Below are positions 1,258 to 24,851 of a stretch of DNA of 24,851 nucleotides, piece by piece (position 1 is the first letter of the stretch; each line of letters begins with the position of its first letter). The stretch comes from a virus. Its lineage: Duplodnaviria; Caudoviricetes. Position numbers and translations under genes: made by a program. The stretch covers positions 1 to 24,851 of IMG/VR virus record IMGVR_UViG_3300017785_001977. One strand, given 5' to 3'. The notes beneath the pieces were generated by a model. That model ran no database searches. It was not told the DNA's origin and saw only the letters and a list, made by a program, of their open reading frames with translations.

Positions 1258-2280
1258 TTACTGTTTAGGTTCGTATCTTTTTGTGTCTTTATTATACACC
1301 ATGGTAGTTGTTGCAGTCGCTACTGGTTTTCCTGTTGGTTGAGTAGTTGGAGATGTGATCTCTCTCGGTTGATAGTAAGTTGACATCAATGGATCAAACT
1401 TGGCAAGCCTGTCGAGGTTTTTGTTATACTCTCCAGAAACGCGATCTCTAATGCTCTTCATCTTGTTAACAAATTGAGGGAGATTAGTCCCAAAGACTTG
1501 CTCACTTGTGAAGATTCCTGATGGGTTAAACACTCTTTCATTCAACTCAGACATCAACATCTTTGCTTCATCAGCACCCACAGCATCAGGACTACCAACC
1601 TGTAGGGAGTTGATTAACTTGCCTAGTGTTCTGGCATTTGAAAGCCTACTGTTAATGTCAGTATCTGGATTTTCTAACTGAACTAACGCTTCCTCAAGTT
1701 GTCCAAGCATTGGATCAATTGTCACAAGGTAATCTGACGCTTTGGTCATCACTTTTGACATTACTTCAGATGGCTTCTTCTCAGGGTTTGCTGCCTGCTT
1801 TTGAGCCTGCTGCAAATCAAATCGTGCCTTCCTTTCCTGCAATTTAGCTTGTTCTAGCTCAACACGTTCTTTCTCAGACATCGGTTGTTGGATCTCTGGA
1901 GGTGCACCATAATACATCTCAACATCTTTAACTGCTTTCCTTTGAGCCGTTTCAAGTGCTCCATTTTCAGCCAAGTGTTGAACTCCACCAAACTTGTTGG
2001 CAATTTGATTAAACCTGTCTTGAATCAGCTTGTTGTAAGCAATCCGACGAGGATCAGGCTGCATCATTTGTTGCTGTGGAGCCTGTTGAACGAACTGTTG
2101 TTGAGGCATTTGAGTCTGCTGTGGGGCGTAGTTCTCAACAATAGGCGGTTGAACTTGTTGAGCCATCCCTTGTCCGTATTGACTCAAGATATCCTGAGAG
2201 ATGGGCATTGCTTGATAAGACTGCCGAAGCAAGTCTTGAGCATACATATCGAGTCTTGGTTGTTGTGATGGTTCAGCCAT
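1258..2280 (-). CDS. Putative ejection/DNA transfer protein (Gln-rich N-terminus, coiled-coil)
   Basis: 340 aa ORF, Q/P/M-rich low-complexity start followed by helical segments; lies among ejection genes. Confidence 0.55.
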   Translation of the reverse strand: MAEPSQQPRLDMYAQDLLRQSYQAMPISQDILSQYGQGMAQQVQPPIVENYAPQQTQMPQQQFVQQAPQQQMMQPDPRRIAYNKLIQDRFNQIANKFGGVQHLAENGALETAQRKAVKDVEMYYGAPPEIQQPMSEKERVELEQAKLQERKARFDLQQAQKQAANPEKKPSEVMSKVMTKASDYLVTIDPMLGQLEEALVQLENPDTDINSRLSNARTLGKLINSLQVGSPDAVGADEAKMLMSELNERVFNPSGIFTSEQVFGTNLPQFVNKMKSIRDRVSGEYNKNLDRLAKFDPLMSTYYQPREITSPTTQPTGKPVATATTTMVYNKDTKRYEPKQ

Positions 2281-2924: not shown

Positions 2925-3728
2925 TTAGTCTTTCATGTAAGTTGCTTTTTCCTGTGATGCCCAAGGCACCTGTCCTGAAATGTTTTCGATTGTCATGTCC
3001 AGCTTAGGACAATGCACAAACTTAGGAGCGTTAACCCTACGATCAACGCAACGAGTGCAAGCGTGAACGTAGTCAACGTTATGCGCCTTCTCTGCCTTCT
3101 CTCTCCACTTGCCATTCGCTTTTTCGTAACGGTAGGAATCATATGGAACGTCATAGCGTTCGATGTATTCCCACACGTCATCATGAGTCCAGTCTCGAAG
3201 AGGAAACATAGCAGTTGCTTGATTCCACATAACCCTTGAGTCAATACGAGTTCCAACGTCACCACCGACGATTGTGTCTGTATCACAGCCCTTGTGACCT
3301 ATCCACAATGCATCAAATGCAGGAGCCTCCAGCATCAACTGCTTTGGTCGTTTAATGATGTCTAGTGAGCAGGTAAACGAGCAGCCTTGAATAGGCTCCA
3401 CAATGCCAGTAGGACACGTTAGAATGTTTGAGTTGATCTGATACACGTTCTGCACTTCAAACTCATCACCTGTCTGCTGGTAAGAAGACTCTTGAGGATG
3501 CCAATTGTAAGCTAACAAATTCCATCGCTTAATGATCTCATCAGCGAAGACATACTTCCTTGGTTCCCATGGTTCACGAAAGAAGATCACAGGCATAGAG
3601 ATGCCCATGCCTTTCATGATGTGAAGAAGTGCCATCGAATCCTTGCCACTACTCCAACAAATCATCCCTTTAGGAAACGACTTGATGCCACTGGCAATAA
3701 GCTTCTTTGTAGTTTCTAGTTTAGTCAT
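2925..3728 (-). CDS. PAPS reductase family (PP-loop adenine nucleotide alpha-hydrolase) protein
   Basis: PP-loop ICWSSGKDSMALL, WIGHKGCD, FPLRDWTHDDVWEYI and CTRC are family motifs. The C-terminal ECGLH of true CysH is absent. Confidence 0.85.
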   Translation of the reverse strand: MTKLETTKKLIASGIKSFPKGMICWSSGKDSMALLHIMKGMGISMPVIFFREPWEPRKYVFADEIIKRWNLLAYNWHPQESSYQQTGDEFEVQNVYQINSNILTCPTGIVEPIQGCSFTCSLDIIKRPKQLMLEAPAFDALWIGHKGCDTDTIVGGDVGTRIDSRVMWNQATAMFPLRDWTHDDVWEYIERYDVPYDSYRYEKANGKWREKAEKAHNVDYVHACTRCVDRRVNAPKFVHCPKLDMTIENISGQVPWASQEKATYMKD

Positions 3729-16969: not shown

Positions 16970-18619
16970 TTAATAAGATCCTATTTCGCCTTGAGGTTGG
17001 AAGCTTTGACTGTTTTGATGGGTCGGATTCATCACCGCTAGATAGCGCAGAACATCGACAGGATCTTTAGTTGCTCCCTTGTCTCCGTCTGCACCTGTCC
17101 ACTCTCGGAGTGAGTAAATGATGTTTTTGCACGTTTCACTAACATAAAGGTTAGGCTCATTTAAGAGCGCAAGCAAGGGTTCGTCCTTATCCCACGCTAA
17201 CCAGTTGTTAATGATGCTCACTCCTTCCTCGATTCGGAGTCCTGCGGCAGGTGTGAACCACATCGGGTCTGGATCTTCGGCTAAGAGGTCAGTCAGACTA
17301 GTGCCACCGTCCTTACCAATCGCCTGAGTGCCACCAGCTCTAGGGTCAATAAACCTGTCAGCGATCTCTTCCTTACCTTCAAGCTCTTCGATGAGTGCTT
17401 TGTAGTCGTTAATCCCTCGACCAGCACCGTTTCGTTGTGCTGCCCCTGCTTTTCCGTCAGGTTTATCGCTTGGGATTGCCCATTCACCCAGATCGATGCT
17501 AGGCCACTCTCTGTAAATGAACTTTCTACCGTGTTCGTCCACTCGGAGCCACAACATGAACCAGTTACGAGCACCAGCAGGATCCATTGCCATGTAATTC
17601 GTGCCCTTTTCTGGGATCTGATCGTCAGGAATCACGTTCCAATTGCCAAATTTGGGGAATTGGGAGCCTGAAAGACTCTCTGCCCATCCATAAGCACGAA
17701 TCTTGACCTCGTAATTGGTGCGTCCATGTAACGCTCTTTTGATTTCGCTGAACGGTGAATAGACGTTAAGCTCCGAATGGAACCAGATAGCCCTGTTACT
17801 CGGATTATGGCAGGTAGCTTGGAATGGCATGGTGCCACGTTCACCACCAGGAACGTTGATTGAGTCCTTGAGCAGGGAAGCTGGGAGCCATTTAGTGATC
17901 ATCGCACCTGCAATGTATTCTTTCACCACCGAAGTATAACCACTGATCGGCGTGAAGGTCAGAATCATCTTACCTCGTCTCGTTGCAGTTCGGTAACGTA
18001 GCGTTTTGATCCAGTCGGCTGTGATTTCTTCGTCAATCCAGATCAAATCTACCTCACCACCTTCGATGACCTTGATGTCTTGAGACTGGTTGAGAAACCA
18101 GCACTGGCTTTTGTTGGGAAGGACAAAGGTATTGTCTGAGAATCCGTTTTTTTGCGTGAAAGCAACATTGGTGATCTTCGTCTTGCGTGCCGTTTTATAT
18201 TCTGCTGGCAGGTATTTGTAGACTACAGGTTGCTGCATCTGCACGCTACTCATGTTAGTCGTATGGATGCACCACACTCGCTTGCCTGGGTTCTGGCTAA
18301 GGTATTGAGCCACTCGTTTTGCAGCGTATTCAGTCTTAGACGCACGGTTTCCGCCAAAGATCATGAGTTCTGAGATAGCTGGATCTGACAGCAGGCTGTC
18401 GGCAATCTTCCAGTGATCGGGTTCGTAGCCGTGACGATAAGGGTCCATCGTCTCTGCCATGATCTTGTCCTCACGCAGTTGCAGAAGCTCACAAGCACGG
18501 TCGATGCCCTTGTTCTTGATGATGTTGGCTATCTGCTCCGCACTGGGAGCGACCATGATAGGATGAGGCGTAGGCGTATATTTGCCTAGCGTCTCCTTGG
18601 ATACTTCGTTGATAAACAT
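16970..18619 (-). CDS. terL: Terminase large subunit
   Basis: Walker A GGNRASKT, Walker B LIWIDEE, coupling motif TFTP, RNase H-like nuclease AMDP and DPVDVLRY. Confidence 0.92.
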   Translation of the reverse strand: MFINEVSKETLGKYTPTPHPIMVAPSAEQIANIIKNKGIDRACELLQLREDKIMAETMDPYRHGYEPDHWKIADSLLSDPAISELMIFGGNRASKTEYAAKRVAQYLSQNPGKRVWCIHTTNMSSVQMQQPVVYKYLPAEYKTARKTKITNVAFTQKNGFSDNTFVLPNKSQCWFLNQSQDIKVIEGGEVDLIWIDEEITADWIKTLRYRTATRRGKMILTFTPISGYTSVVKEYIAGAMITKWLPASLLKDSINVPGGERGTMPFQATCHNPSNRAIWFHSELNVYSPFSEIKRALHGRTNYEVKIRAYGWAESLSGSQFPKFGNWNVIPDDQIPEKGTNYMAMDPAGARNWFMLWLRVDEHGRKFIYREWPSIDLGEWAIPSDKPDGKAGAAQRNGAGRGINDYKALIEELEGKEEIADRFIDPRAGGTQAIGKDGGTSLTDLLAEDPDPMWFTPAAGLRIEEGVSIINNWLAWDKDEPLLALLNEPNLYVSETCKNIIYSLREWTGADGDKGATKDPVDVLRYLAVMNPTHQNSQSFQPQGEIGSY

Positions 18620-18621
18620 GG

Positions 18622-18837
18622 TTACTCACTTCCGATGGGAAGTTGATTCATCCGTGTATAGATCGAATCAAGCACACCTTTCCGTTGGTCCTTGCTCCAC
18701 CGCCAGATGTTGCCTCCATCAACGAATCGGAGCGATCCGTGCAAGCTATCAAGGAGCACCATTAGCTCCCACTGGTTAATCATTGGAAGCGAACAAGGCG
18801 ATGATCCCAATTCGTCAAGCATTTTGGAGTCTTTCAT
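18622..18837 (-). CDS. Hypothetical protein (71 aa)
   Basis: Co-oriented ORF ending 2 nt before terL. Confidence 0.55.
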   Translation of the reverse strand: MKDSKMLDELGSSPCSLPMINQWELMVLLDSLHGSLRFVDGGNIWRWSKDQRKGVLDSIYTRMNQLPIGSE

Positions 18838-18857
18838 AAGTTATATCAGACTTAAAT

Positions 18858-19040
18858 CTAGTTAAGATCTGTTTCATCAGACCTAACACACGCACAGTTT
18901 AACTTTGCAAGCAGTTTCTCAGCAAAGTCTTGATCTAGTCCGAAGTCGCTGATGTAGTCGAGGAACTCAGGAAAGAAGTCTTCGATAAACAGAGCCATGG
19001 CATCCAGTTCTTTGATGTTAAATCTAAAGGAGTCTTTCAT
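18858..19040 (-). CDS. Small acidic hypothetical protein (60 aa)
   Basis: D/E/F-rich ORF directly after a promoter-like element. Confidence 0.55.
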   Translation of the reverse strand: MKDSFRFNIKELDAMALFIEDFFPEFLDYISDFGLDQDFAEKLLAKLNCACVRSDETDLN

Positions 19041-19047
19041 TTTTGAG

Positions 19048-19075
19048 AACGTAAGTCACGAAAAAGCACTGGCAA
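19048..19075 (-). promoter_or_regulatory. Putative promoter for the packaging/virion operon
   Basis: TTGCCA-N16-TACGTT; the -10 box lies 7 nt from the ATG at 19040, suggesting a near-leaderless transcript. Confidence 0.4.
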
Positions 19076-19099
19076 GAGTGAGATTGCCTCTTGTTTCAG

Positions 19100-19127
19100 T
19101 TGACTAGTCCCTGTATTATTGCATCAT
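19100..19127 (+). promoter_or_regulatory. Putative promoter for the plus-strand ncRNA
   Basis: TTGACT-N16-CATCAT (alternative: TTGTTT-N17-TATTAT at 19091-19119). The predicted start at about 19134 coincides with the first stem. Confidence 0.5.
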
Positions 19128-19133
19128 AGATAA

Positions 19134-19545
19134 TGGTTTGCTCTGCGGGATCGGAGTGATCTGATCTACTTGCAAACCAGCAACTAGCTCGACTTTGATC
19201 CCGCGAAGTCGGGCTTTTTGTTTATTGGGCATCTCTGCCTAAAATAACCTTTAGTGTCACTGCGTTGTGCTCCATGGGAAGGTGTTGAGAATTCGGTGGA
19301 CGATGGATAGCAGATCAGTCGTCCTAAAGTCGCAGGTGAAAGCCTGGGCTGCCGTTGAATCGTTTGATCCGTGTTTACTGAGACAGCCGAGCGGAGAGAT
19401 TCAACAGTGCGAAGGTGTTCCCGATTCCTGACGAATAAGAATTCCAAAGCTTGCAGTATCCCAGCAATGGGACTGCTATGCTCAGATGAAACCGCTCAAG
19501 CCCTCTGAATAAGTAGTTTACTGACCAGTAAATGTTGCAAATACA
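19134..19545 (+). ncRNA. Large structured non-coding RNA of unknown class
   Basis: Many helices, GNRA loops GTGA, GAAA and GCAA, and G-U pairs valid only on the plus strand. No credible ORF; occupies the largest intergenic gap. Confidence 0.65.
19186..19223 (+). terminator. Intrinsic terminator/attenuator within the ncRNA leader
   Basis: AGCTCGACTTTG-ATCCCG-CGAAGTCGGGCT hairpin followed by TTTTGTTT. Confidence 0.7.
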
Positions 19546-19556
19546 GTGCAGGATTT

Positions 19557-20276
19557 TCAACAAAACAAGTCAAGTTGCGAAGTCTCTCGCTTGATCCTTT
19601 CCTTGGCAGCTTCAAAGTAGTCTGCATCAATCTCGCAAGCGGTTAAATGCATTCCAGCATAGTGACAGGCAATAGCGTGCGATCCTGAGCCTAGGTGAGT
19701 ATCTAGGATACGTTGACCTGCTGTAGCGTAGTTCTTGAGAAGCCACTTGTAGAGGGCAACTGGCTTTTGAGTTGGGTGGATTTTTGTGTCATACCCAGCA
19801 CTGAAATGGTGCATAGCAAATCTACGGCAAGAACTATCAAACGATGTCCATGCTAACTCAAAATCAGCCATGTTGTTTGTGCCATTCATCTTGTCCCATG
19901 ACAAAAAACACCGTGTTGAGTTCAAGTGATCAAGAAAGTAATTGCCTCCCCAAATGATCTGATTTTTTGATACTCTGCGAAGTTCAGCAAAGTATTGTCC
20001 ATTTGGTGTTGCACTATCCCATTCTCCGCCAGTAATGCCATTCATGCCACGCATCATTGAAGACTTACTTTCGGTTGTCTTTTTAAATTGAGACACGATC
20101 CCAATCCCATAAGGAGGATCAACAATAGCCAAATCAAAGTGTTTATCTGGAAACTCCTTCATCACGTCCATGCAGTCAGCTAGACGTAGATCTAAGGTTC
20201 CAGCATGAGGAATTACCGCCAGTGACTCCTTCACCGGAGTAGGCTCGTGTTCAAGGTTGAATGAATCGGGAGTCAT
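19557..20276 (-). CDS. Orphan DNA methyltransferase, N6-adenine/N4-cytosine family (beta class)
   Basis: DLAIVDPPY catalytic motif precedes HPTQKPV and ILDTHLGSGS SAM-binding motif. No adjacent restriction nuclease. Confidence 0.92.
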   Translation of the reverse strand: MTPDSFNLEHEPTPVKESLAVIPHAGTLDLRLADCMDVMKEFPDKHFDLAIVDPPYGIGIVSQFKKTTESKSSMMRGMNGITGGEWDSATPNGQYFAELRRVSKNQIIWGGNYFLDHLNSTRCFLSWDKMNGTNNMADFELAWTSFDSSCRRFAMHHFSAGYDTKIHPTQKPVALYKWLLKNYATAGQRILDTHLGSGSHAIACHYAGMHLTACEIDADYFEAAKERIKRETSQLDLFC

Positions 20277-20301
20277 AAATTATGTTCTTTCAACAGTTTT
20301 G

Positions 20302-20359
20302 AACTGTCAACGATTCCTTGACGGTTGGAATACCATATTGCTAACGTCAGCAAAATGGT
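20302..20359. repeat. Two adjacent operator-like palindromes
   Basis: AACTGTCAA-CGATTCC-TTGACGGTT (20302-20326) and ACCATATTGCTAAC|GTCAGCAAAATGGT (20332-20359, 12 of 14 positions symmetric). Confidence 0.75.
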
Positions 20360-20383
20360 CTGCACATGAGCAGTATATAAAAA

Positions 20384-20695
20384 TTATAATGCCAAACGTT
20401 TCCTCTCATAAACTGGCTTATTGTGAGTTATTCGAAAAACTCGAACAGCCGATTTTGAGCACTTGAGAATGAGAGCAATATCAAGGTTAGAGTTCTGTTT
20501 CCATGCTCTGTCACTGATCTGCGGTAACTTCTCTTTGAGTGCAGATCGTTTAGCCTTGTCAGGTGCTCTAGGAAGACCTCTCTCACGTCGAGCACTCCTC
20601 ACCGTCTTGTCACAGCATCCTAGCTGAGTTGCAATCGCCTCGTTCGTCTGGTTCCAGTCTGTAATGGAGCTGAAGTCTACTTTGTTGTATTTCAT
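20384..20695 (-). CDS. DNA-binding protein with two HTH-like repeats
   Basis: W.QTNEAIATQLGCCDKTVRSARRERG and WKQNSNLDIALILKCSKSAVRVFRITH. Confidence 0.65.
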   Translation of the reverse strand: MKYNKVDFSSITDWNQTNEAIATQLGCCDKTVRSARRERGLPRAPDKAKRSALKEKLPQISDRAWKQNSNLDIALILKCSKSAVRVFRITHNKPVYERKRLAL

Positions 20696-20883
20696 ACCTT
20701 TGGTTGGTCAAAGAACTCTATTAATTCTTCTTCGGTGAATATCGGCTCAATGTCACGTTCATGTTCAATACGCTTTCCGCATTCAGAACATTGGCAATTG
20801 CCTTGATCGTCCACAATCATCTCAAGATCACAGCATTCAGGCACTTCGGGATATTCGGGTGGATCGTTCCAGTAGTCATTCAT
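20692..20883 (-). CDS. Small acidic zinc-ribbon protein
   Basis: ECC...CQCSECGK; 63 aa. Confidence 0.55.
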   Translation of the reverse strand: MNDYWNDPPEYPEVPECCDLEMIVDDQGNCQCSECGKRIEHERDIEPIFTEEELIEFFDQPKV

Positions 20884-20887
20884 AGCT

Positions 20888-21412
20888 TTAATATCTCCCT
20901 AGCTTCCTCGGTTGGTATTTACTGACTAAGGTATAACCGTCCATCCGAATGATGATCCGCATACCAGGAATGAACATCGAGGAATCTTTACAACGACAAA
21001 TCACCTCCCTACCTCGGTATTCCACGATCAACATCGTTCTGTTCGGCATTCTGCAACGCTTTACAATTGCAGTCTCTTCACCCTCAAAGAGTCGTTGAGT
21101 GGCATTCAACACTTGTGGAACATCTTCAGTCTGTGGAACATCTAGAGCTTGTTCGTTGATTGGTTCGTCGTCGTCTGGCATCAGGTTTTCTGATTTACTT
21201 GATTGCCATTGATTTTCAATCGGCTTGCGAATACCTAGCAGATTATCACCGAAGTCATTCACGAAGAACTTGTGACCTACTTTTACGAAGGACTGTGGGA
21301 TTGCCAGCAGAATGTCTTTAGCCTGTTTCTTGGTTAGGCCATGCTTCTCTGCTGCGATGAGTAGAGGAACAGTTCCTTCAGGTGGACGGATGGACTTGGA
21401 TTGTGTTTTCAT
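20888..21412 (-). CDS. Hypothetical protein (possible N-terminal DNA-binding domain, C-terminal beta domain)
   Basis: Likely start MKTQSK at 21412; two domains joined by an acidic linker. Confidence 0.55.
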   Translation of the reverse strand: MKTQSKSIRPPEGTVPLLIAAEKHGLTKKQAKDILLAIPQSFVKVGHKFFVNDFGDNLLGIRKPIENQWQSSKSENLMPDDDEPINEQALDVPQTEDVPQVLNATQRLFEGEETAIVKRCRMPNRTMLIVEYRGREVICRCKDSSMFIPGMRIIIRMDGYTLVSKYQPRKLGRY

Positions 21413-21662
21413 TTGTTTCCTTATTGTAGCTTTGAATGGCAACTTACTTGCGACCTTTAACTGCAACTCGCAACTTGTCACGTTCTAGTTTTCTCCTGTG
21501 ACACCAGTCGAGTGCTTTGGCAAGTCTAGGGTTATCCAGAGAGGGGCTTTTGTGAATATTTTCTGACTGTGAGGATTCATCAACTTTTTTACAGCTCAAA
21601 ACTTTTTGACCCCCTCCGCCCCTAGTCTCAACGTCACTCTTGAGATTGAGTATTAATAGTTC

Positions 21663-21675
21663 TAAATCGTTGATA
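21663..21675 (-). promoter_or_regulatory. IHF-consensus site
   Basis: Minus strand TATCAACGATTTA matches WATCAANNNNTTR exactly. Confidence 0.4.
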
Positions 21676-21726
21676 CTGAGTGATGATGTATTATACATTA
21701 CGTGGATTGTTTGTAGTTATGCCAGG

Positions 21727-22188
21727 TTATTGAGACTCTGTTACCTCTGTAAACTCTCCCTCGATGACCATTCCTTCGCTTCGGAGGAGTTCATTGACGG
21801 AAGATTGGTCGATTCTGAGCCTATGTTCTACCACTGTTTGAGGTTGATCGTGAAGAGCTTGGATTTTGTCAATCGCCACGGCAATAGCGATGGGTAAACT
21901 AGCCAACGGCATATCATCAATTTCCTTCACCAACCTCTCACTTCCCTTGCTCACAAAGTGACTTAGCGTGGCAGCAGTGCTCTTCTTCCAGCTAACCAGA
22001 TTGAACCCTTCAGCTTCATCCTCCAGCTTGTTTTTGAGAGCAGTAACTGCATGAGTCGAGGTCTCATGTTTCTTCGCACAAGCTACGACTCCTAGACCTT
22101 CCTGTAGGTCAGCAATAATCGCTTCACGCTTCTCATCTGGTATCTGATTTCCTGAATGTCTGTTGTTACTTGTTGGAAGTCTGTCCAT
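21727..22188 (-). CDS. HTH protein, terminase small subunit candidate
   Basis: N-terminal HTH (PDEKREAIIADLQEGLGVVACAKKHETSTHAV), helical oligomerisation-like core (LPIAIAVAIDKIQAL), short C-terminal strand. Confidence 0.5.
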   Translation of the reverse strand: MDRLPTSNNRHSGNQIPDEKREAIIADLQEGLGVVACAKKHETSTHAVTALKNKLEDEAEGFNLVSWKKSTAATLSHFVSKGSERLVKEIDDMPLASLPIAIAVAIDKIQALHDQPQTVVEHRLRIDQSSVNELLRSEGMVIEGEFTEVTESQ

Positions 22189-22191
22189 ATA

Positions 22192-22416
22192 TTAAGCTGA
22201 TTGGTTGTTTCTTTGCGTTTTAAGTATGGTTTTACGCATGTTTAGATCATCTCCGCTATCTTGTATCACATCACCCTCTAAAGACGCGTTAAATCGATTG
22301 TAATGATTAAAGTAGTCCTCAAGAGCGGTAAACTTAATATCCTCCTGGAGTTTAGTCATGACTGGCATCCTGCAGAGTGCTTGAGCTAGTTTGTGAGTTA
22401 GTTGGTCTGTTGTCAT
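22192..22416 (-). CDS. Hypothetical protein (74 aa)
   Basis: Likely start MTTDQL at 22416, 1 nt after the dnaB stop. Confidence 0.55.
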   Translation of the reverse strand: MTTDQLTHKLAQALCRMPVMTKLQEDIKFTALEDYFNHYNRFNASLEGDVIQDSGDDLNMRKTILKTQRNNQSA

Positions 22417-22417
22417 A

Positions 22418-23674
22418 TTAGTATTCCGATTGTTCTCTGAACTTATAGAACTGACCAAGGAAGTCCAATTGCTTCTCCCAAAACCTTTCACCCGTCCTGT
22501 TCTTGATGCATTTGAGAAGTCTCTTCGTGTCATCGTCATCCACCTTCTCAATGTAAACGACATGATCAGCATCCTGTCCAATGGCTCTAGATTCTCTCAA
22601 CTGCCCGAAGTCGTTGAGTTGGCTAGCAGTCAGGATAACCTTGCCACACTTCACAGCAGTCCTCTTCAATCGTCTGGAGATGCTAGCAATGATCTCTTCC
22701 CTAGATCCTTTCTTATTCCCATCATCCTCCATGAGTTGGAGATAATCAACCATAGCAACATCACAGTCAGACTGCTCGATGTCTGCTAGGATCTCACTGG
22801 CTGAGGCTCCATTCACATCAACAATATCGCACTTTGCGACACCTAGCTTCTTCACTGCATCCATGAGTGCTGCTTGCTCTGCTCTGGTCATCATCCCTTT
22901 CCAGACCGATTGATTATCAAGGTTGCCCTGTGAGCATAACAAACGATATGCTTGTTCCTGTTGAGTCATCTCAAGCGGATAGATGCGAACCTTCTTCCCA
23001 AGAGCAACAGCAGACTCCAAGAAGTTCTGCATCAAGACTGACTTACCATCTCCAGGTTTTCCAGCTATGACCCAGACTCTACCACCTTGCATTCCGCCAG
23101 TTTTGGAGTCGATGAACGGAAACCCAGTCGAGATGCCTGATAAGGCTCCACCTGCTTGCATTCGCTTTTCAATGTCCTCAAGTAGGGTGATTGTAAGCTC
23201 TCCAATCGGTTTGGAGGATAGAGGCTTACCTTGGATCTTGCTGGCAGTCTCAATCACTCGTTCCGCTTCGCTTAATGCTGCTGGTATCTCGTTGATAGGC
23301 ATGTTCAGTGCCTGTTCTGAGAGGTTGAGAGCATCCTTGTAAGCTTGGACTCGTTGCACTAGTTCATAGCGTTGCCTGAGTTCGGAGACTGCTACAGAGA
23401 CATTTTGTCCAGTCACTGGACTTGTGAAATACTCTGTCAGCGTTGCTGCTCCACCGACTTCGTCTAGCTTACCTTGGTAGCGTAGTCGAGCAGTCATCGT
23501 GACGAGGTCTGGAGTCTCATCACGTCCGATTGTGTTGACCAGCTCGATGAAGATCGGTCGAATCATCGGAGAGAACATATCAGCAGTGATTGCGTGGATG
23601 TGCTTACCAAGGAACTGAGGGAATTGCAGGAAGATACTGATCAACAGTTCTTCGTTGGCTTTCTTGAGGATCAT
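22418..23674 (-). CDS. dnaB: Replicative DNA helicase, DnaB family
   Basis: Walker A AGKPGDGKS, PLEM, VDYLQL, SQLN and LRESRAIGQDAD; N-terminal LDEVGGAA domain. Confidence 0.95.
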   Translation of the reverse strand: MILKKANEELLISIFLQFPQFLGKHIHAITADMFSPMIRPIFIELVNTIGRDETPDLVTMTARLRYQGKLDEVGGAATLTEYFTSPVTGQNVSVAVSELRQRYELVQRVQAYKDALNLSEQALNMPINEIPAALSEAERVIETASKIQGKPLSSKPIGELTITLLEDIEKRMQAGGALSGISTGFPFIDSKTGGMQGGRVWVIAGKPGDGKSVLMQNFLESAVALGKKVRIYPLEMTQQEQAYRLLCSQGNLDNQSVWKGMMTRAEQAALMDAVKKLGVAKCDIVDVNGASASEILADIEQSDCDVAMVDYLQLMEDDGNKKGSREEIIASISRRLKRTAVKCGKVILTASQLNDFGQLRESRAIGQDADHVVYIEKVDDDDTKRLLKCIKNRTGERFWEKQLDFLGQFYKFREQSEY

Positions 23675-24420
23675 AAACGGTCGTATTGGCTGAGTTGTTT
23701 AGGTTTAATGAAGTTCTCTGCATTCGACTTTGATGCTGGCTTCTCATCCTCGTAGCGTCTTGAGTTGAGGTAGGTCGCTGGAAAAGGAATGTATTTCACT
23801 CCTTCTTTCGTCCAGTCTTCTGACTTACTCTGCCAGTTTAAAGCGGTAAGAACTGTTTGAAGATCTGGTTTAATCTTAGCCCAGGCTCTCTCAGCATCTG
23901 CTTTGGCAGTCTTTCTTGGGTAGGCAGTCCAGAACTCATTGAAGCCTGCTGGTATATGTTTATTTGGATTAGAAGTTATAGTAGGAGTTAGAGTAAGAGT
24001 CAGAGAGCTTATCTCTGGGTTATCTGTTTGGTTATCTTCTGAACATAACCTTGGGTTATCTTTTTGGTTATCATCTTGGTTATCTGTTTGGTAATATGGG
24101 TTTGATTTACCCTTCACAAAGTTAGGGTTTCCACCCTTCTTTCCATTCTGAACACATGTAGTCTTGTATTTGTTCAGATTATTACGAACTGATTCCAATT
24201 TGGCATTCTTACCATCAGGAAACTTGCGTAACACATCAAGCGTTACATTTGACCCTGCTATTCGTGTAAGTTTAGGAATGTCCTCAACTGGAATTGATTC
24301 TCGGCTCCACTGATAGCAAAGCAGACGAATGTAGGTTCCTACCTCTTCAGCGGACAGATCACAGGTGCCTCCAATGAAGTCGTCAGGGTAGAATTGAAAA
24401 GCTGGAGCTTTGGGTTTCAT
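23671..24420 (-). CDS. Phage replication initiator (YdaU/DUF1376-like N-terminus)
   Basis: PAFQFYPDDF...LSAEEVGTYIRLLCYQW, NGKKGG and C-terminal FNEFWTAYPRK...PFPATYLN..RYED; contains iterons; coupled to dnaB. Confidence 0.85.
   Translation of the reverse strand: MKPKAPAFQFYPDDFIGGTCDLSAEEVGTYIRLLCYQWSRESIPVEDIPKLTRIAGSNVTLDVLRKFPDGKNAKLESVRNNLNKYKTTCVQNGKKGGNPNFVKGKSNPYYQTDNQDDNQKDNPRLCSEDNQTDNPEISSLTLTLTPTITSNPNKHIPAGFNEFWTAYPRKTAKADAERAWAKIKPDLQTVLTALNWQSKSEDWTKEGVKYIPFPATYLNSRRYEDEKPASKSNAENFIKPKQLSQYDRL
24006..24096. repeat. Iteron array, putative replication origin
   Basis: Exact GGTTATC at 24018, 24030, 24054, 24066 and 24078 (12-bp phase), with an inverted ATAACC in the skipped slot. 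Confidence 0.75.
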
Positions 24421-24632
24421 AAACGATAACCCTCCTTTTCAAGCTGAACGATGGCAGCATGCAAGAATTCAATAACATCAGGAATTCTTGATGCTTCAAT
24501 GAAGATAGTCTGATCTGCTTCACCATTGTGATATCTTTCTGATGTTCTATCAAAATGAGTTTCTAGAACAACTATGTCGGCTACGAGTGAAAGCGTTAGC
24601 TCTTTTTGAGGTTCAAATGTAAGTTTATTCAT
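24417..24632 (-). CDS. Small hypothetical protein, first gene of the replication operon
   Basis: 71 aa; ATGA-coupled to the initiator; follows the structured leader. Confidence 0.6.
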   Translation of the reverse strand: MNKLTFEPQKELTLSLVADIVVLETHFDRTSERYHNGEADQTIFIEASRIPDVIEFLHAAIVQLEKEGYRL

Positions 24633-24638
24633 AATAAC

Positions 24639-24768
24639 AAAAAACCCTCAACACTGCCGTCGAGTTGAACCGTGCCCAATGAAAAAGCACCTCGACGACA
24701 GGATTGAAGGATTATTGTGTTGATGATCATTGTAATGATACCGCAGGGGTTCAAACCTGTTCTCGGCA
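24639..24768 (-). ncRNA. C4/CI-like antisense RNA and attenuator leader
   Basis: 5' hairpin with TTGAACC in its loop; long branched hairpin with an unpaired GGTTCAA bulge followed by a T6 tract. Confidence 0.65.
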
Positions 24769-24773
24769 ATGGG

Positions 24774-24801
24774 ATTATGCTCTGTTGTCTGTATGAGTCA
24801 A
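24774..24801 (-). promoter_or_regulatory. Sigma70-type promoter of the replication operon
   Basis: TTGACT-N16-CATAAT; the first hairpin begins about 6 nt downstream. Confidence 0.65.
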
Positions 24802-24816
24802 GGATAGCTTTAATGA

Positions 24817-24851
24817 CTATGCTTTAAGTTTCTTCAATACTTTACGAGCAA
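24817..24851 (-). CDS. Possible 3' end of an upstream gene (...ARKVLKKLKA*)
   Basis: Open frame from the window edge to TAG at 24817-24819; too short to verify. Confidence 0.3.
   Translation of the reverse strand, partial: ARKVLKKLKA

Follow-up and report, generated by a model that had tools for sequence, protein, structure and literature searches.

What does a long, bulged hairpin do immediately ahead of the replication genes of an uncultured phage? The window, a whole phage record of 24,851 bases with an estimated completeness of 64%, carries its long open reading frames (ORFs) on the minus strand. From the right end, these encode a 71-amino-acid (aa) protein, a DUF1376-like initiator, DnaB, a methylase and the virion proteins, including an SU10 capsid protein; among cultured phages, the capsid protein and DnaB have only ~30% matches. 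A sequence-only reading of the locus had proposed a C4/CI-like antisense RNA switch placed directly on the replication operon, and profile matches to the initiator and DnaB confirmed the placement:

24417..24632, minus strand: 71-aa ORF, the first, exchangeable gene after the element, with no Pfam or PHROG match
23671..24420, minus strand: DUF1376-like replication initiator/primosomal protein (PF07120 at E 4e-6, below the curated cut-off; phrog_9327 at E 7e-31; phrog_270)
22418..23674, minus strand: DnaB-like helicase, overlapping the initiator stop (PF03796 at E 5e-39; phrog_19 at E 3e-61)

The 71-aa ORF overlaps the initiator as the initiator overlaps DnaB, and the leader element stands ahead of this replication unit. 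As a protein query the 71-aa ORF returned no confirmed relatives, and its slot is taken in related loci by an initiator, an HNH nuclease, a methylase or another small ORF. The 60–64-aa first-gene ORFs of L037, L054, L071, L096 and L137 look like it by eye, L137 being the one that was aligned. Several GATAACC-type repeats inside the initiator gene (~23990-24100) are a likely iteron origin.

All the motifs named in the sequence-only reading were recovered in their places on the minus strand, and the 231-nt element region folds at −60.4 kcal/mol (z −3.05), with none of 200 shuffles as stable. The parts of the element are as follows:

24774..24801, minus strand: sigma70-type promoter-like site TTGACT-N16-CATAAT (10/12 match; −35 at 24796-24801, −10 at 24774-24779, 16-nt spacer)
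24740..24767, minus strand: leader target hairpin, whose 8-nt loop TTTGAACC (24748-24755) exposes site a
24748-24754, minus strand: site a, TTGAACC, unpaired in the fold (p ≥ 0.93) and co-varying with the bulge
24727..24732, minus strand: site b, CAATGA, which holds the AUG of the leader frame and is the complement of the inner loop in 20/20 elements
24629..24730, minus strand: 33-codon leader frame, with its AUG inside CAATGA, crossing the whole hairpin and ending in a TGA that overlaps the ATG of the 71-aa ORF (ATGA)
24645..24710, minus strand: long hairpin with an outer stem of 8+11 bp, a 7-nt bulge and an inner stem-loop (−34.3 kcal/mol)
24672..24690, minus strand: inner stem-loop, whose loop carries b' (TCATTG, 24677-24682)
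24665..24671, minus strand: bulge a', GGTTCAA, the complement of site a
24639..24644, minus strand: U-tract (T6), intrinsic-terminator-like, closing the long hairpin
24610..24616, minus strand: second TTGAACC, in codons 6-8 of the 71-aa ORF, probably not a working target

A promoter scan of 18000-24851 found sites at chance level (10 vs 10.2), the one above being among the two best of the 10. Its support comes from position, because it beats all random control windows at the locus and because a −10-like hexamer recurs in relatives, 17–21 nt before the leader loop in 17/20 and often weak. The predicted transcription start, near 24767, falls at the base of the leader hairpin. A 9/12 promoter-like site on the plus strand (24606-24635), which could have been the source of a counter-transcript, is not conserved, its −10 hexamer appearing by eye in 4/20 alignment rows, and such sites occur at the chance rate. 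The leader AUG is partly hidden by a local ATCATT/AATGAT hairpin (24726-24739, minus strand; unpaired probability 0.16–0.37), which is absent from L054 and L078, two elements otherwise nearly identical to that of the window.

Relatives of the element were collected in two ways. Thirty loci carrying initiator homologues were examined, five of which have the element upstream, and pattern scans gave 11, 38, 25, 116 and 7 loci. The patterns fixed part of the outer stem, and the one behind L109, L113, L137 and L204 also required ATGA 12 nt after the stem. After removal of matches without the hairpin, of duplicates and near-duplicates and of L073 (identical to the window), the final set comprised 20 distinct elements including the window; because these sequences are related, counts over the 20 elements are not independent events. 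A scan of a genome collection contributed one of its seven matches, L223, the other six having failed the hairpin filter; its 38.8-kb contig is binned under the name Caulobacter (bin label only). The exact pattern of the window's inner hairpin had no matches in viral contigs, a DNA search of cultured phages gave only eight short matches, all inside genes, and plasmids gave none. Model R1 found no element in the cultured Akkermansia phage Chantilly.

The long hairpin has the same architecture throughout the set. It had been described as branched, which in the C4 sense it is not, as all 20 folds show one outer stem, one 7-nt bulge on the 3' side and one inner stem-loop. Base pairing holds in 98.9% of outer-stem cells, and 6 of the 19 outer-stem pairs have changed on both sides across the 20 elements; the stem opens CC(T/C)TCAAT in 20/20, a feature fixed in part by the search patterns. 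The first 8 nt after the stem hold 5–7 T in every element; part of the set came from patterns that required TTTT, and the 11 loci of one pattern scan did not. The hairpin is thus a candidate for antisense RNA and terminator stem in one. Neither the window nor 20 related loci matched any Rfam family at the gathering score; at E ≤ 10 the window returned six unrelated chance families, C4 not among them, and the C4 covariance model (RF01695) run alone gave 0 matches at E 10.

Both unpaired segments of the hairpin find a complement upstream. The proposed pairing of the bulge GGTTCAA with TTGAACC in the leader loop (a:a') is kept as 6–7 bp in 19 of the 20 elements and co-varies among three types, TGAACC, TGGAAC and TGGACC. 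Its covariation score was 0.239 against 0.106 ± 0.025, a value reached in 0/500 shuffles, and slid controls were all lower. Fifteen cells had changed on both sides, again reached in 0/500 shuffles; two pairs show a both-sides change, no more than in shuffles. The second proposed contact (b:b'), between the loop TCATTG and CAATGA, holds in 20/20 elements and also comes in three types (CAATGA/TCATTG, CGACATGA/TCATGTCG and CCTATGA/TCATAGG), all of which span AUGA, with cognate matches of 6–8 nt vs 4–5 nt between types. Because its TCAT is invariant in 20/20, the inner loop can be read as an anti-start-codon. The a types and the b types combine differently across the 20 elements. The fold predicted for the terminated RNA leaves a, a' and five of the six b' bases unpaired (p ≥ 0.93), and the bare duplexes are short contacts of −7.3 (a:a') and −4.0 (b:b') kcal/mol. 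The covariation signal is compatible with pairing in trans and in cis alike.

We also considered a nested antiterminator in cis made of both contacts and rejected it (−23.1 vs −47.4 kcal/mol); a:a' and b:b' form no antiterminator because forcing them into a nested fold costs 24 kcal/mol. By eye, L031 (element at 1485-1636, minus strand) combines the window's loop type with another bulge type, with one mismatch in seven and a shifted register; it may have arisen by recombination or as a chimera of assembly, or be a variant insensitive to its own RNA.

The key part of the arrangement had been missed in the sequence-only reading: the inner loop has as its target the start codon of a reading frame that crosses the hairpin and ends where it could couple to the next gene. 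This leader frame is open in all 20 elements, over 29–38 codons, whereas shuffled sequence is open only 16–26% of the time. Stop and following start share exactly 4 nt in 17/20 elements, the stop lying at −1, +8 and +20 in the others, and the exact overlap is found in 13 of the 16 elements that were obtained without the ATGA-requiring pattern. The peptide sequence is not conserved; the frame itself is kept. In L071, one base lost in the hairpin is accompanied by one gained in the linker, and in L223 two bases are gained and two lost, the frame being preserved in both. The ATGA frame results from five of the seven distinct length layouts, an outcome with a probability of ~0.045 by hand arithmetic if the layouts are independent. 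These features suggest that the leader frame is translated and coupled onward.

The second TTGAACC, which had been put forward as a downstream target, fared differently. Within its first 90 nt, the next gene matches the bulge over at least 6 nt in 2/20 elements, against a background of 2–6% per 90 nt. The two cases, the window and L137, share a GGTTCA bulge and encode homologous small proteins (33% identity, E 2e-6) with common TFEP codons, and L054 and L078 carry the window's own hairpin without the downstream match. The word itself is not enriched, with 6 copies in the window vs 3.4 expected and 14/100 shuffles reaching 6. Directly downstream of the element there is neither a partner for b nor an a+b site. 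We therefore rejected a downstream target as a general feature, the matches being 2/20, at chance level and confined to the TFEP run, and the downstream TTGAACC may have a local role in the window alone. Of the two targets assigned to the bulge, the upstream site co-varies with it and the downstream site is not kept.

Complete relatives place the element in a consistent genomic order, on one strand: recombination genes, promoter and element, a variable gene, initiator and DnaB, then terminase and virion genes. This order rests on 92 of the 138 called ORFs of G001, G002 and G004; in G006 a primase-helicase replaces the initiator and DnaB. Model R1 finds one element per genome. The claim that the element is an immunity switch, in the lysogenic sense, was not supported. 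Tyrosine integrase (PF00589) was found in 0/6 family genomes (98–100% estimated completeness, two with terminal repeats), serine recombinase (PF07508) in 0/5, and HTH_3, S24 repressor and ParA in none of five family genomes each, absences by HMM that leave room for an unfamiliar recombinase. A Pfam scan of 77 selected ORFs (called at ≥70 aa) likewise gave no lysogeny genes, only a weak ParB_N below the cut-off. Lysogenic immunity is doubtful because these near-complete relatives show no integrase, repressor or ParA.

Similar leaders occur ahead of initiators outside the window's family. Two further initiator scans supplied 160 loci, each scan contributing the best 80 of >500 confirmed, and a descriptor for a long bulged hairpin with a U-tail, applied to 190 initiator loci, gave 76 distinct candidates. 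The complement of the bulge lies ≤70 nt upstream in 24/44 sense hairpins, compared with 2/44 downstream, 1/44 far upstream and 0/32 on the other strand. The 24 hairpins with an upstream match have the same layout in mostly unrelated letters, and 4 of them belong to the window's family. In 19 of the 24, the frame ends between −6 and +8 of the next start, in one it is fused to the next gene, and in four (L004, L024, L274 and L324) there is no coupling; the other 52 candidates comprise 38 without a next gene, 2 coupled, 2 fused and 10 not coupled. The wider set holds 14 distinct a-words, with non-cognate a matches in 18/182 pairs. In that set a 5-nt b match fails to separate cognate from non-cognate pairs (non-cognate matches in 107/272 pairs), and in several of the wider families b lies just 5' of the AUG, not over it. 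L320 and L024 were found by model R1 at E < 0.001 and L013, L392 and L017 more weakly, scores that hint at distant kinship; L013 also fits the layout by eye. None of the 20 loci tested had an Rfam match.

An uncatalogued RNA element is thus real, and the upstream part of the C4/CI-like model stands, with bulge and loop matched to two upstream sites and a U-tract behind the hairpin; its downstream target and its C4 and Rfam membership do not. Because loop and bulge match the start codon and the upstream loop and change together with them, the element is likely an RNA-only feedback switch on replication. The reading that we favour, with a little over even confidence, is a ribosome-gated attenuator with RNA feedback, in which ribosomes keep the terminator open and couple onward while accumulated leader RNA blocks the AUG in trans; in this scheme we infer that the promoter is used, the frame translated, the transcript terminated and a stable RNA released that works in trans. 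A ribosome that started at the AUG of CAATGA, in a leader whose sequence is observed and whose translation is predicted, would melt the stem, suppress termination at the U-tract and reinitiate on the ATG of the 71-aa ORF, which the leader stop overlaps. Ribosome-free transcripts would end near 24636, presumably yielding an RNA of ~130 nt, or the 66-nt hairpin, with a' and b' unpaired. Through the pairing that covariation reveals, such an RNA could act in trans by kissing loop a of a nascent leader and covering its AUG with UCAUUG, and termination would follow with loss of coupling. The likely result is that the output of initiator and helicase is held down by negative feedback and that a second phage with the matching a/b type is repressed; integrative lysogeny is an improbable outcome.

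The most serious competitor, which we consider possible but clearly less probable, confines all of this to one molecule. In a cis-only attenuator, a double pseudoknot would cover the AUG, ribosome loading would race the folding of the hairpin and thereby set the level of initiator, and no diffusible RNA would be made. Such an attenuator accounts for all of the covariation and for the coupled frame, and agrees with the lack of a downstream target and of a C4-type processing signal. It also fits the single a+b target, adjoining the hairpin, that 6/7 genomes have on the sense strand. (G003 has a second a-plus-b-like site on the sense strand at record position 28560, far from its element.) Timing and geometry speak against the cis-only attenuator. 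The decision of the ribosome at the AUG would mostly have been made once b' is transcribed, so that pairing in cis should add little to termination, and in five members 9 nt join AUGA to a stem of ~24 bp, which by estimated geometry would strain b:b' with the stem intact. Moreover, at least 14 a-words in one conserved frame are as expected of specificity groups, although drift can give the same.

The sign of the control could also be reversed. In Gifsy-1, according to PMC4825925, the short orf45 contains STnc1160 and is translationally coupled to anrP, and a short 5' RNA, IsrK, which ends at its own terminator before orf45 and is complementary to STnc1160, activates this coupling in trans. By analogy with this similar layout, a:a' and b:b' in cis would hold the transcript inactive until a short 5' fragment with a and b titrated the hairpin and freed the AUG. 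The terminator scan of the window found none between the leader hairpin and the leader frame; a separate short 5' RNA would therefore have to arise by cleavage, and we regard positive feedback of this kind as improbable. Slightly more improbable still is the full version of the earlier proposal, a processed C4/CI-type immunity RNA with upstream and downstream targets that silences a prophage. The upstream a/b pairing and the position before replication genes do fit P4 CI, and the window and L137 have a 6–7-nt downstream match, both with the GGTTCA bulge. These matches, however, are the 2/20 in the common TFEP run and have no b partner downstream, RF01695 stays unmatched even at E 10, and the six family genomes have no integrase.

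The known carriers of C4/CI-type RNAs are a few temperate phages and satellites of Proteobacteria, and in P4 it is the blocking of a small ORF, kil, that drives termination. The trans-acting attenuator favoured here has its closest precedent in P4 CI RNA, a same-strand antisense RNA that is released by processing from the replication-operon leader and ends transcription early by pairing with a site upstream (PMC4825925, PMC3632133); RNA control of replication genes is therefore not new (PMC4825925). Our element likewise sits in a replication-operon leader and has a pairing of the upstream seqA type. Unlike P4 CI, it has no conserved seqC-like downstream site, no integrase in its relatives and no Rfam match; its blocked start codon lies upstream of the RNA, the frame crosses the RNA, and the base of the RNA is a U-tract terminator-like stem.

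The comparison with C4 is similarly divided. In C4, a second target set downstream is labelled a2/b2. The C4 RNA of P1/P7 (RF01695) has three stem-loops, P1–P3, and a closing stem that begins (5') with GGW, the RNase P site (PMC5320573); it controls the icd-ant antirepressor genes (PMC8198154), and in the c4-a1b1 target motif the target lies in a hairpin loop of ~8 nt (PMC2864571). The two have in common b' at a translation start, a' on an upstream specificity site, a target in a loop of ~8 nt and types defined by a few changed letters. The element differs in having two stems rather than three, no GGW start, no second target set and no covariance-model match, and what follows it is an initiator, DnaB or a primase-helicase, an HNH nuclease or a methylase, not icd-ant.

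As in isrK-orf45-anrP of Gifsy-1, a short ORF contains a structured RNA and appears to be coupled to the next gene (exact overlap in 17/20), and the 5' leader is complementary to the nested RNA. There, the control is an activation and concerns an antirepressor of an integrated prophage, whereas here the nested RNA is the terminator-like stem itself, again with no Rfam match. By the tests that define them, the element is a member of none of the P4 CI, C4 and Gifsy-1 systems. In plasmids, antisense RNA limits the initiator by blocking a coupled leader peptide (CopA/tap/repA of R1, repY/repZ of IncI), and the CopA/Inc regulators are counter-transcripts from the opposite strand with full complementarity. 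Our element resembles this copy control by outcome and departs from it in its candidate regulator on the same strand and its two contacts of 6–8 nt; no conserved opposite-strand promoter was seen. Our literature search found no account of the leader, which may stand as an unnamed candidate in the supplements of Weinberg 2017 (c4-2) and Fremin 2023, both outside that search.

The element thus represents a smaller C4/CI-type form, in which the candidate repressor RNA is its own terminator and the target is the start codon of a frame that crosses the RNA, and it sits ahead of replication genes in many uncultured phages. If it acts in trans, RNA alone would let these phages set initiator dose or exclude their kin, and the natural variation in a and b (three types each in the family and at least 14 a-words in the wider set) would offer ready orthogonal switches; if it acts in cis only, the family remains an attenuator absent from catalogues and deserves its own model. 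We put forward a broader view tentatively and well short of conviction: RNA-only replication switches may be widespread and uncatalogued in phages without a recognisable integrase or repressor, with a leader of 130 nt serving as target, leader-peptide message, terminator and antisense repressor, and with a and b words recombining as specificity groups of the incompatibility type that limit a phage's own replication and exclude coinfecting phages of the same type.

A few loci depart from the common layout or add to it. L004 (~60-230) and L274 (~1360-1490) have the bulge-to-loop pairing without a coupled AUG frame, both with TTTCGA in the inner loop, and are possibly a form with the a contact only. 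The promoter region of L004 is common to L033, which carries the window's family, and the elements look exchangeable. By eye, 86–88-nt hairpins in L253 (462-549) and L304 (1178-1263) have two bulges, one matching the leader loop and the other the bases before the leader AUG. The leader frame of L251 and L262 ends at the second of two overlapping starts, and in L032/L001 a long ORF in a different frame overlaps the methylase gene that follows the element. Elsewhere in the window, terminator-like hairpins lie between the methylase region and the virion genes (19071-19088 and 19186-19215), and a PAPS-reductase-domain gene is found at 2925-3728 as well as in the relative G006 (L398, 7183-8385).
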